A DNA stretch of 64,000 nucleotides, from sequence record MT446416.1. One strand, 5' to 3'. The notes under the pieces were generated by a model, which made no database searches, was not told the origin of the DNA, and saw only the letters and a program-made list of their open reading frames with translations. A program made the translations under genes and the position numbers. Below, in pieces: positions 35,941 through 39,006 of the stretch (positions are counted from its first letter, which is position 1; each line of letters opens with the position of its first letter). The DNA comes from Escherichia virus TH47.

Positions 35941-36105
35941 TCATCGGTGCACGATATGCATCAGTACTTCTTCGTCGAGTTCAGTACTTAAATATGCTTT
36001 GTACACGCACTTGATACGTATAACATCCCACATTCTAGAATCTAATGGTAGATAATAAGGATTCCACTTTAATTTTTGGCGTTTCATCCACTCTTCATGT
36101 GTCAT
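35941..36105 (-). CDS. small protein, MTHEEW tandem paralog 3 (54 aa), not in track
   Basis: Hand translation MTHEEWMKRQKLKWNPYYLPLDSRMWDVIRIKCVYKAYLSTELDEEVLMHIVHR; ATGA stop/start overlap with upstream copy. Confidence 0.4.
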   Translation of the reverse strand: MTHEEWMKRQKLKWNPYYLPLDSRMWDVIRIKCVYKAYLSTELDEEVLMHIVHR

Positions 36106-36266
36106 ATTCGTACCAGTAGTTCAATTAAGTACATTTCATATGCTGGATCGTTGATAAGTTTATCATACAGATGTGACTCTGAAATGAATTCCCAATGATA
36201 TTTTCGCCATTTACCAAAACCTGCATATCTAAAATTAATGTCATTCATCCATTCTTCATGTGTCAT
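36102..36266 (-). CDS. small protein, MTHEEW tandem paralog 2 (54 aa), not in track
   Basis: Begins MTHEEWMNDINFRY...; 165-nt unit identical in length to its neighbours; ATGA overlaps. Confidence 0.4.
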   Translation of the reverse strand: MTHEEWMNDINFRYAGFGKWRKYHWEFISESHLYDKLINDPAYEMYLIELLVRI

Positions 36267-36427
36267 AATCGTACCATTATTTCAATAAAGAACCACGGAT
36301 ATACTTCATGGTTTATAAGTTTATCGTATTCTGCTGGGTCTGATATAATTTCCCAATGATATTTTCGCCAACTACCTATACCCGAATATCTAACATTAAT
36401 GTCATCCATCCATTCTTCATGTGTCAT
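36263..36427 (-). CDS. small protein, MTHEEW tandem paralog 1 (54 aa), not in track
   Basis: Hand translation MTHEEWMDDINVRYSGIGSWRKYHWEIISDPAEYDKLINHEVYPWFFIEIMVRL. Confidence 0.4.
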   Translation of the reverse strand: MTHEEWMDDINVRYSGIGSWRKYHWEIISDPAEYDKLINHEVYPWFFIEIMVRL

Positions 36428-36465
36428 GGTTTTTAACCTTTAATTAAAATTGTCAAAAATGTATT

Positions 36466-36990
36466 TTACTTAACATGCTTCCATGTTTTATTCAAGGCTG
36501 CGTCTGATATTACAGTGTGAGATACACCATACTTATCTGCTAATACACGTGCACCATGTTTTTTATCATATGGTTTATATACAGAACGAATATATCTAAC
36601 ATCTTCTTCTGTTAATTTAGATTGAACACATTCGGAACCTTTTAGTGGAATGTTAAGACCAGTCTCGTATGCATGTATATTATTATCACTATAAGTAGCC
36701 CATTCTAGGTTCCAATCTTCATTGTTTAATTTATTACCATCTTTGTGGTTAACGATTGGTTTGTTGTGTGGATTTGGAATAAATGCTGTAGCTACCAATA
36801 TGTGAACTCTAAAACATTTACAAACACCCCCACGACCCCCAATCCTAGTACTTAAAACATTGTAACCTTTCTGATTAATACCTAGTACTAAAATTTTATT
36901 AGTTCTTTTGCTAAAGATTCTACCTTTATTGCTAACTTGGAAATGTTCTTCATATCCAACTACATCACGCCATTCTTCAACTCTTTCCAT
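36466..36990 (-). CDS. HNH homing endonuclease with NUMOD4-like N-terminal motif (174 aa)
   Basis: WRDVVGYEEHFQVSNKGRIFS then HNH core VNHKDGNKLNNEDWNLEWATYSDNNIHAYETG. Confidence 0.7.
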   Translation of the reverse strand: MERVEEWRDVVGYEEHFQVSNKGRIFSKRTNKILVLGINQKGYNVLSTRIGGRGGVCKCFRVHILVATAFIPNPHNKPIVNHKDGNKLNNEDWNLEWATYSDNNIHAYETGLNIPLKGSECVQSKLTEEDVRYIRSVYKPYDKKHGARVLADKYGVSHTVISDAALNKTWKHVK

Positions 36991-37024
36991 GAGTTTTATT
37001 ATATATCCTTAATATTATATTTTA

Positions 37025-37096
37025 TAAAGGGCCGGAGAATCGAACTCCGATTGGATTCTTAGAAGGAATCTGTTTTATCCATTAAACTAGCCCCTC
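37025..37096 (-). tRNA. tRNA-Arg (anticodon TCT)
   Basis: Manual fold: D-stem GTTT/AAAC, anticodon stem GATTC/GAATC with loop CTTCTAA, T-arm CGGAG-TTCGATT-CTCCG; acceptor GAGGGGC/GCCCTTT needs two G-U pairs including 1:72. Confidence 0.5.
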
Positions 37097-37156
37097 AGTA
37101 CTAATAATTATATCACATCTTTGTGGTCTGTCCCAGAAATTGTGATATAAAAGTTG

Positions 37157-37375
37157 TTATTCTTGTGGTTTAGTTACACCAACACCAATAATGCTTTTAA
37201 TATCAATATGGATATTAGCAAGTTCATTACTGTCAAACGGGTTAGTTTCAGTTACAACAACAGTGGCATCATTAACTAAAACTACTGAACCTTTTACGCG
37301 GTATCCCTGAAGGAGTACTTGAACATTGTCACCAGCGTTTAATGAGTTAATAACTTCTAATAGGGTAGATTCCAT
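37157..37375 (-). CDS. hypothetical protein (72 aa)
   Basis: ORF in gene series. Confidence 0.45.
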   Translation of the reverse strand: MESTLLEVINSLNAGDNVQVLLQGYRVKGSVVLVNDATVVVTETNPFDSNELANIHIDIKSIIGVGVTKPQE

Positions 37376-37391
37376 TTTATATTCCTTACGG

Positions 37392-37583
37392 TTAACTATT
37401 TTTACGTTTTTCTGATTCTGGTACAGTTTTCATTTCACCAATACATAGTTCCATGATGAGTACACCTTTATCATTATAACGTACTACATCTTCAATGTCA
37501 AAATGTCTCGCACTATGAACAACTTCAATACATGCATCATCGGGATATGATTCCAATAATGCTACAAGTTCTGCTTTTGTCAT
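37392..37583 (-). CDS. hypothetical protein (63 aa)
   Basis: Small ORF. Confidence 0.45.
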   Translation of the reverse strand: MTKAELVALLESYPDDACIEVVHSARHFDIEDVVRYNDKGVLIMELCIGEMKTVPESEKRKNS

Positions 37584-37712
37584 TTGCCATCTCTCTGTTA
37601 TTTATCTTTAGTAATTATAGCATAAAAACACATCATGTCAAATGTTTTATCTTTATTTTAAGTGATACACAGTACTGAAAATATAATAAAGAAAAATTTC
37701 CAGTACTGAGTT

Positions 37713-38687
37713 TTATTTAACGTGTTTCCATGATACACCTCTAATAGCTCTACTTATTTGCATTCTATGAACGCCAAACTTTTTTGCTAATGCGTCATAA
37801 CCAAATTCTTTATGTTTTGGTACAAATACTTTTCTACAGTATCTAACTATATCTTCAGTTAATTTGGAATTTGGTTGTTCATCACCTTTAAGATGATAAT
37901 CAGGGTTATTTATTTCTTTATATTCTGTACTTTCTTTTGCAGTCGCCCACATAAGATTGTCTAAATCATTATGTTCTTTATTACCATCTTTATGTATTAC
38001 GTATGGTTTGTTTTCGGGATTTGGTATAAAAGCCATTGCCATTACACGACTTATTTTAAATCCTATATGTTTGAATTCATCACCAACTTTTATTTTTGTT
38101 GCATGATATGGATTTCCATTACTTAGAGTCTGCTTTAATATTTTTCCAGTGCGTTTGCTGAATAAATTTCCATTATCACTAATAGAAAAATCATCCTCAA
38201 ATCCAATTACATCTTTAAATATTTCAGTTTCATTTTCTGGTGGTTCAAATGGTATTCGGTTTTTATAGTAATATGTATTTTTACAAGAAGTTCCGCAAAA
38301 TCCTTTTGACCTACTATCAGAAATTATTATTCTATTAGTACAGTTGATACATTTTGTTTCATATGGTACAAAGGGTTTATAATTTTCGTATTTTATATTA
38401 CTTCTTTCTAACATATGAATTCTAGCATGTTCAGATGCTGACAATATTTCAAGATTTTCTGGGGAATTATTTAATATATTTTCATCTATATGATGTACAT
38501 GTTCATCGGATGATAACCATCTACCTGCTGCAACTGCTGCAACATGTCTGTGATAATATACTCTCCCAGTTTTATGACACATGGGGTGTTCTTTATCCAT
38601 AAAATAAAGATAACCCTTATTAGTGCCGTGTAATTTTAATTGGTTTATTATACATACCAAAGTTCTCCGTAAGTTGTTGTTTCGCAT
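37713..38687 (-). CDS. two-module HNH homing endonuclease (324 aa)
   Basis: N-terminal HNH VHHIDENILNNSPENLEILSASEHARIH; second module FKDVIGFEDDFSISDNGNLFS plus VIHKDGNKEHNDLDNLMWAT. Confidence 0.7.
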   Translation of the reverse strand: MRNNNLRRTLVCIINQLKLHGTNKGYLYFMDKEHPMCHKTGRVYYHRHVAAVAAGRWLSSDEHVHHIDENILNNSPENLEILSASEHARIHMLERSNIKYENYKPFVPYETKCINCTNRIIISDSRSKGFCGTSCKNTYYYKNRIPFEPPENETEIFKDVIGFEDDFSISDNGNLFSKRTGKILKQTLSNGNPYHATKIKVGDEFKHIGFKISRVMAMAFIPNPENKPYVIHKDGNKEHNDLDNLMWATAKESTEYKEINNPDYHLKGDEQPNSKLTEDIVRYCRKVFVPKHKEFGYDALAKKFGVHRMQISRAIRGVSWKHVK

Positions 38688-38829
38688 AGAGATATCGGGG
38701 AGTCGAACCCCGCCTTAGAAAATCGGAAGTCTCCAGGAAAACCACTATATACCTCAATATGTGCATTTCATCTTTCAATAACTGCATTATATCACAGTTT
38801 TTTGATTTGTCTCAGGTTTATTTATCTTG

Positions 38830-39006
38830 TTATTTTTTATCTCTAATAGCAAGCTCGTAGATGAACCAGTGGTTAGAATCTTCGTCCAAAACCAATGATT
38901 CGAACGTTTTTTTATCGTTCAAAACATCATAATGGCCTTGGCGTATACCAAAACCAAAAGGATTATGTTTGAATTTTAGTTCATCTAACCATTCTTTGTG
39001 TGTCAT
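38830..39006 (-). CDS. small protein, fourth MTH[EK]EW paralog (58 aa), not in track
   Basis: Hand translation MTHKEWLDELKFKHNPFGFGIRQGHYDVLNDKKTFESLVLDEDSNHWFIYELAIRDKK; ATGA overlap with 39003..39188. Confidence 0.4.
   Translation of the reverse strand: MTHKEWLDELKFKHNPFGFGIRQGHYDVLNDKKTFESLVLDEDSNHWFIYELAIRDKK

Follow-up and report, generated by a model that had tools for sequence, protein, structure and literature searches.

The DNA considered here belongs to Escherichia virus TH47 (sequence record MT446416.1) and comprises 64,000 nucleotides (nt), hereafter the window, i.e., the whole stretch that was analyzed. According to its sequence, the window is that of an Asteriusvirus-type (121Q/PBECO4) Escherichia coli jumbo phage. 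Within it lies a transfer RNA (tRNA) island, in which tRNA-Thr, tRNA-Asn, tRNA-Ser and tRNA-Arg are called and all the genes are on the minus strand. This island harbors a family of small open reading frames (ORFs), here named MTHEEW after the first residues of their products. Judging by the conservation of their frames, these ORFs are real, conserved coding genes for lineage-specific helical proteins of 54-61 amino acids (aa). The members of the family and their junctions are the following:

36263..36427, minus strand: copy C (c3), 54 aa, MTHEEWMDDINVRYSGIGSWRKYHWEI..., protein MTHEEWMDDI...; first gene of the tandem block, matching phrog_10970 at E 1.9e-26
36102..36266, minus strand: copy B (c2), 54 aa, protein MTHEEWMNDI...; recent duplicate of C, whose stop its start overlaps as ATGA
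35941..36105, minus strand: copy A (c1), 54 aa, protein MTHEEWMKRQ...; old paralogue, joined to B by an ATGA stop/start overlap
38830..39006, minus strand: copy D (c4), 58 aa, MTHKEWLDELKFKHNPFGFG..., protein MTHKEWLDEL...; dispersed paralogue that ends an upstream operon, matching phrog_10970 at E 2.7e-29
39003..39188, minus strand: 61-aa ORF, protein TFDEW...YFSIAV; assigned to phrog_31562 and coupled to D through ATGA
36234..36277, minus strand: conserved C/B junction, GGTACGAtTATGACACATGAAGAATGGATGAATGACATTAAT; likely substrate for in-register unequal recombination
36073..36116, minus strand: conserved B/A junction, GGTACGAATATGACACATGAAGAGTGGATGAA, from the comparison of junction sequences

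An earlier note on this DNA, which did not state the strand, had given coordinates for all the MTHEEW ORFs that both the reading of the sequence and the ORF list bear out. These ORFs were missing from the supplied ORF track solely because of its 60-aa cutoff. The stop/start overlaps that it had described between successive ORFs are likewise confirmed by the junction sequences (TTATGA, ATATGA and AGATGA), in which every TGA stop overlaps the following ATG; the overlap expected of a coupled operon is thus present at C/B, at B/A and between the 61-aa ORF and D. Its claim that a tandem amplification with translational coupling is uncommon is not supported as regards the coupling, since 23 ATGA overlaps occur among the 151 minus-strand ORFs of the window that begin with ATG and have at least 50 aa: the overlaps at the MTHEEW genes are not special but reflect the general packing style of the genome. 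A Shine-Dalgarno-like sequence (AAAGG) lies 10-14 nt upstream of copy C.

The similarity among the four ORFs A-D is far beyond chance. A hidden Markov model (HMM) built from the four peptides and run against all stop-to-stop segments of the window recovers just those four (E about 1e-31), with the runner-up at E 1.4. All four also match phrog_10970, a cluster of "unknown function," over their full length (E 8e-26, 1e-24, 2e-26 and 3e-29; profile positions 1-55/56). In the four-copy alignment, M1, T2, H3, E5, W6 and an R near the C-terminus are invariant. At the DNA level, Tandem Repeats Finder reports a repeat at 36083-36427 with a period of 161 nt, 2.1 copies, 81% matches and a score of 443. 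The three-copy tandem family is therefore genuine, but only B and C are close (78.8% nt and 63% aa identity): A shares just 24-28% aa identity with B and C, and both A and D are about 24-30% identical in aa to the other copies. The description of the block as a tandem amplification was consequently overstated, as a single recent duplication (B/C) adjoins an ancient paralogue (A).

Nor had these genes been overlooked: they are annotated coding sequences in 121Q, Turkey3, PBECO4 and others, and they are clustered in PHROG 10970. In 121Q, they correspond to genes 125-127 and 118, which are annotated as hypothetical proteins (AIT14019-AIT14021 and AIT14015). Syntenic orthologues lie between tRNA genes and a 118-aa ORF in 121Q, Turkey3, PBECO4, slurp01, UB, ph0011, A4, UE-S1, JP4, ELP-22 and CMSTMSU, and the orthologues of the window copies are 83-94% identical to them. 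The 121Q-type genes of PHROG 10970 and the window copies are, in short, the same family at the same genomic position, and nothing essential differs: the window shows a 3+1(+1) arrangement with an HNH gene inserted upstream of C, and lacks two subtypes (E and F) present in relatives. The family being already annotated and clustered, the finding is genuine but fairly ordinary.

A set of 55 MTH..W ORFs from the window and 11 related loci, which fall into six orthologous subtypes (A-F), was used to examine their coding status. Frames are intact throughout each subtype. Among orthologues, the ratio of nonsynonymous to synonymous polymorphism (pN/pS) is 0.29 for A, 0.34 for B, 0.21 for C, 0.26 for D and 0.50 for E, which indicates that the genes are under purifying selection. 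Conservation of the reading frame in related phages, on which the earlier note had staked its case, was hence found at 11 of the 11 loci, with pN/pS values of 0.21-0.50. As for the conserved N-terminus, its His and Glu codons follow genomic usage and, for this reason, its conservation acts at the protein level; the sole biased codon there is codon 2, which is ACA in 76% of the members versus 37% genome-wide. An explanation through DNA-level constraint alone was rejected, in that synonymous variation in this stretch matches genomic codon usage. Another candidate that was dropped is a Cu/Ni-binding N-terminus (Met-Thr-His, or Thr-His after removal of Met): His3 is nearly invariant within PHROG 10970 but, across the broader superfamily, gives way to K, Y, F, L or R.

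Structure prediction, which had been proposed as a check, was carried out with AlphaFold2 and yields a compact four-helix model with a predicted local distance difference test (pLDDT) score of 75 from two independent alignments. The predicted helices span residues 3-13, 22-29, 31-38 and 43-53, approximately, and a deeper alignment gave no gain in confidence. The model has no significant structural match: Foldseek found none at E <=0.001 in PDB and BFVD, and a sequence profile search of PDB gave no relative (best E 0.17). Resemblances to MLLE domains or to paired-amphipathic-helix bundles score below significance, are typical of any helical bundle of 50 residues and come with no sequence relationship. 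Regarding composition, four of the five proteins have an isoelectric point (pI) of 4.9-6.0, while copy A is slightly basic (pI 7.9); Trp, Tyr and Phe together account for 7-13 residues in each protein of 54-61 residues. Distant members retain the length and the hydrophobic/aromatic pattern at about 20-30% identity.

The 61-aa ORF (39003-39188) is probably a fifth, distant member of the MTHEEW superfamily, on the grounds of intermediate-sequence PHROG assignments and iterated searches. The iterated family HMM matches this ORF over its full length (E 2.8e-4); a jackhmmer search begun from it recruits the MTHEEW family and converges on it; and intermediate sequences match both PHROG 10970 and PHROG 31562. 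PHROGs keeps these two clusters apart, and their direct comparison with hhalign is weak (E 0.009, probability 4%). Proteins of the PHROG 31562 type share with the MTHEEW family the length class, an N-terminal T-x-D/E-E-W, aromatic residues in the middle and a C-terminal ...Y-F-x-I-A.

Copy-number variation among related genomes, which the earlier note had suggested looking for, was found: in cultured phages, the tandem block consists of 2 or 3 genes. Each tandem junction holds about 35-40 nt of nearly identical sequence, made up of a ..GGTACGAnT end plus ATGACACATGAAGAATGGATGAA. Two different two-gene patterns can be distinguished: (i) in PBECO4, slurp01, UB, UE-S1 and A4, copy A is joined straight to the 3' end of C and B is absent; and (ii) in JP4 and ELP-22, B's body is found behind the 5' flank and the ATGACG start of C, whose own body is absent. 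Whole genes are thus missing exactly at the conserved junction in different phages, and both patterns are as in-register unequal recombination at this junction would give, which points to such recombination as the process involved. The conserved end (..VR) and the conserved start (MTHEEWM) of the genes supply the near-identical junction DNA, and the family evolves by birth and death, gene by gene. A further observation concerns the dispersed copies: in PBECO4 (L004), JP4 (L003), slurp01 (L006) and others, about 35 nt upstream of the D/E copies (..cacttaattgaactggatacataaaATG) resemble the B-type 3' end (..tacttaattgaactactggtacgaatATG), which suggests that family members once present there have decayed or been deleted in part.

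Concerning its distribution, the family has a narrow range. With one close member and three distant ones as queries, tblastn found it in 34-36 of the 50,697 GenBank phage records, all of them from Escherichia or Salmonella phages, and each record whose taxonomy line was read was Asteriusvirus. A search of 5.8 billion proteins gave 16 clusters, and a full HMMER scan of 1.84 billion representatives gave 22 proteins of 43-71 aa, save one of 1052 aa (P0031); the latter, a eukaryotic PAH/Myb repeat protein with a repeated match to a 20-residue stretch, was judged spurious. Among DNA collections, a pattern scan of IMG/VR gave, besides 121Q itself, a single further contig. Of the 120 loci obtained from metagenomes with an 18-nt degenerate pattern, almost all were chance matches, real members being present only in a PBECO4-like contig (L128).

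The distant members come from metagenomic contigs of uncultured related phages, in which the family can be much larger. The largest expansion observed is that of L012 (Logan ERR4503900_124), a 78-kilobase (kb) contig with 32% GC whose best similarity, mostly in tRNA genes, is to Klebsiella phages of the RaK2 type. Between positions 2547 and 7259 (4.7 kb), 26 ORFs of 45-68 aa follow one another on the same strand of this contig, and 21 of them match the superfamily profile; most of the 26 are separated by 1-2 nt or overlap by 4 nt. A tRNA cluster follows directly, and seven tRNAs are called in the locus. Two other contigs have 13 (L013) and 9 (L017) members, respectively. The diverged members of these uncultured relatives end in ...Y-x-A-I-A-x-G instead of ...V-R, and the independent PHROG models assign some of them to phrog_10970 (E 2e-5 to 8e-9) and one to phrog_31562. 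The same junction recombination has probably built these long arrays.

The expression context of the block is suggested by its flanks, where the following features are found:

37107..37134, minus strand: sigma70-like promoter match, GGGACA-16-TATAAT with an upstream TG (by consensus); candidate start of a unit of tRNA-Arg, HNH, C, B and A
37024..37097, minus strand: tRNA-Arg(TCT), upstream of copies C-B-A on the same strand; about 24 nt away from the start of C in ph0011 and similar relatives
36466..36990, minus strand: NUMOD4/HNH homing-endonuclease ORF, 174 aa, inserted between tRNA-Arg and copy C
35903..35930, minus strand: sigma70-like promoter, TTGACT-16-TATAAT, matching at 11/12 positions, just past the stop of A; downstream boundary of the block
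37641-37614 and 38815-38786, minus strand: further sigma70-like promoter matches (by consensus)

The likely unit consists of promoter, tRNA-Arg, (HNH), C, B and A, because promoter matches flank it and because C starts about 24 nt after a tRNA in ph0011 and other relatives that lack the HNH insertion. No stem-loop or terminator was found on the minus strand at the block, and inside the block there is no intergenic DNA. The genes would accordingly share transcripts with the tRNAs, made from early promoters of the host type (sigma70-like), and the downstream genes would be translated by termination-reinitiation at the ATGA overlaps. In each lineage examined, the members share the strand of the tRNA cluster and are either interleaved with the tRNAs or directly upstream of them.

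With respect to function, the proteins could be expressed early and bind host proteins stoichiometrically, with a part in host takeover or anti-defence, and the paralogues could have diversified over different or changing targets; this role is put forward tentatively, as one possibility. The explanation as a whole, which combines a translated family, birth and death at the junctions, co-transcription with tRNAs and a host-binding role, seems to us evenly poised between right and wrong. Several results weigh against it. The promoter matches are no commoner than in shuffled sequence (23 found versus 31 expected) and count as leads only, and the linkage to tRNAs may be functional or may be mere synteny inherited within one phage clade. 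The four ORFs have no match in Pfam-A or NCBIfam even at E up to 0.1-1, and neither the search of 5.8 billion proteins nor the HMMER scan of 1.84 billion representatives yielded fusions or named homologues; a broader profile still gave no fusions or named proteins. PADLOC returned no match at E up to 1, although its models describe host defence systems and not phage counter-defence. Finally, acidity and small size are weak predictors of an anti-defence function. In the literature on Asteriusvirus, 121Q, PBECO4 and paralogous small proteins of jumbo phages, the MTHEEW family is not mentioned. A more specific form of the proposed role, judged unlikely, is a microprotein accordion for counter-defence or takeover, a new class of such proteins, in which the paralogues would act against different targets, perhaps nucleases that attack the neighboring tRNAs; in-register recombination at the conserved junctions would let this accordion expand and contract, cultured coliphages having about 5 copies and uncultured relatives more than 20.

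Other explanations can be weighed against the host-binding role. The proteins might serve the tRNAs themselves, either by protecting, processing or regulating the phage tRNAs or by blocking host anticodon nucleases, which would explain why the family stays inside the tRNA cluster: same-strand adjacency is observed in the window, in the cultured Asteriusviruses and in L012, L013 and L017, with little nucleotide similarity beyond the tRNAs, and the distance of about 24 nt between a tRNA and C in relatives agrees with it. But the carriers all belong to one phage supergroup, so that the synteny may be inherited; no RNA-binding or nuclease-inhibitor fold is resembled; proteins that are mostly acidic disfavour direct RNA binding; and homing endonucleases and other small ORFs gather there too, as in a general variable region. 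A tRNA-linked role is judged rather improbable. Still less probable are small DNA-binding regulators that would control phage or host transcription with helices 2 and 3 as a helix-turn-helix-like pair. The short predicted helices with tight turns between them and the slightly basic character of copy A fit such regulators, yet Pfam, NCBIfam and PHROGs give no match to a helix-turn-helix family, all but one of the five proteins are acidic, and some 20 divergent copies are not expected of a regulator.

It is also conceivable, if very improbable, that the genes are cargo or helpers of the adjacent homing endonucleases (e.g., immunity or target-site factors) and move jointly with them. Two HNH/NUMOD4 ORFs do adjoin members in the window, and in UB a 525-nt ORF lies directly upstream of C; in most relatives, however, the family has no endonuclease gene beside it, and endonuclease positions vary within the tRNA cluster while the family stays put. 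As to the notion that the ORFs are incidental and that the real feature is a non-coding repeat (a recombination or regulatory repeat, or a decayed tRNA flank), it is effectively excluded. Junction DNA does seem to serve as a recombination substrate, and the excess of ACA at codon 2 is a possible bias at the DNA or RNA level. Nevertheless, pN/pS is well under 1, the frames are undisrupted in dozens of copies, paralogues that share only 25% aa identity, and about 54% identity at the DNA level, are still alike in length and in the pattern of their residues, the fold is predicted with confidence, and Rfam finds nothing in the MTHEEW stretch.

Some known systems resemble the MTHEEW family in part. 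Arbiol, Comeau and Krisch are said to have described, in about 2010, how small early ORFs of T4-type phages are shuffled through short conserved promoter/stem-loop repeats. Common to those variable ("hyperplastic") regions and to the MTHEEW locus are tiny genes of unknown function, tRNAs, homing endonucleases and host-type promoter matches, as well as the gain and loss of whole genes via short conserved repeats. The substrate is there an intergenic promoter/stem-loop and here the coding junction of one family; the ORFs are there unrelated and here paralogues; and a promoter/stem-loop repeat of about 50 base pairs (bp), as in T4-type phages, is absent here, where sigma70-like matches flank the block and no stem-loop was found. 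Elde et al. reportedly described, in 2012, a gene-amplification "accordion" of poxvirus K3L. Both cases involve tandem copy-number change of a small gene, a host-interaction gene in K3L, by unequal recombination followed by divergence; in contrast to K3L, the MTHEEW copies are old and divergent, not recent identical amplicons, and belong to a phage system. Small acidic anti-CRISPR and anti-restriction proteins are similar in size, acidity, helical fold, narrow range and accessory location, but no associated regulator gene was identified beside the MTHEEW genes.

The neighborhood of the family carries additional insertions. By megablast, the region is 89-95% identical to 121Q, PBECO4, Turkey3 and others, with a coverage of just 42-56%, because the window carries extra insertions: its two NUMOD4/HNH genes are mostly missing from relatives at these positions. 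The 174-aa HNH ORF is not at that position in most relatives; comparable 525-nt HNH genes are found elsewhere in the tRNA cluster of JP4, ph0011 and Turkey3, and the 525-nt ORF of UB lies immediately upstream of copy C. The second gene is the following:

37713-38687, minus strand: double-HNH/NUMOD4 homing-endonuclease ORF, 324 aa, free-standing within the tRNA island

Next to this gene, at 38688-38755 on the minus strand, lie 68 nt that resemble a tRNA-Gly(TCC) but are degenerate, the D-arm being weak; this sequence ends 1 nt ahead of the start of the ORF. ARAGORN calls it at a relaxed threshold only, Rfam misses it, and relatives have a normal tRNA-Gly in its place. This arrangement suggests that the endonuclease gene was inserted beside a tRNA-Gly that is now decaying or atypical.

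A second tRNA gene of the island, tRNA-Met(CAU) (34174-34478, minus strand), is interrupted in the anticodon loop by a group I intron of 230 nt. Its parts, as joined in silico, are:

34478-34441 and 34210-34174, minus strand: tRNA-Met exons
34440-34211, minus strand: intron

The joined exons form a perfect cloverleaf of 76 nt, and the intron matches Rfam RF00028 with 95-100 bits, the last part of the 5' exon forming its P1. With default settings, the tRNA scan did not call this split gene. In most relatives, the tRNA-Met located here is uninterrupted, and Turkey5 has the same split arrangement at 95% identity without an annotated tRNA-Met. Directly downstream, on the minus strand, a 234-aa ORF (33450-34154) has no Pfam match here, yet in Turkey5 and RaK2 it bears the annotation "HNH homing endonuclease." A nucleotide similarity of about 76% to the Klebsiella phages K64-1 and RaK2 extends from tRNA-Asn across the ORF, and this homology stops exactly at the boundary between 3' exon and intron (34210). 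In a brief search of the literature, no account of a phage tRNA gene with a group I intron came up.

Finally, the window has 40 occurrences of an 8-bp palindrome that includes a ScaI site, CAGTACTG, where 0.75 would be expected; each of 100 shuffles gave at most 4. Examples of its sites are:

886, 16190, 35497, 35909, 37670, 37701, 39226 and 39305: palindrome CAGTACTG

Four copies lie within the spacer of near-perfect sigma70-like promoters, TTGAC(T/A)-N10-CAGTACTG-TATAAT. The others are mostly inside ORFs; on the gene strand, AA is favored in their 3' flank. Possible roles for the palindrome are those of a site for binding, modification or nicking, or of an element of phage promoters.

Asteriusvirus phages are being developed for therapy. 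More than 80% of their genes have no known function, a figure that is 83% in phAPEC6 according to one published account (PMC7247149). The MTHEEW genes would provide a clean example of a phage microprotein family that grows and shrinks gene by gene via conserved junctions, and the growth of the array to some 21 members in one uncultured relative suggests a recurrent selective pressure on the family. The paralogues also make up a small set of candidates with which to screen for early host-interaction or anti-defence factors in Asteriusvirus phages.

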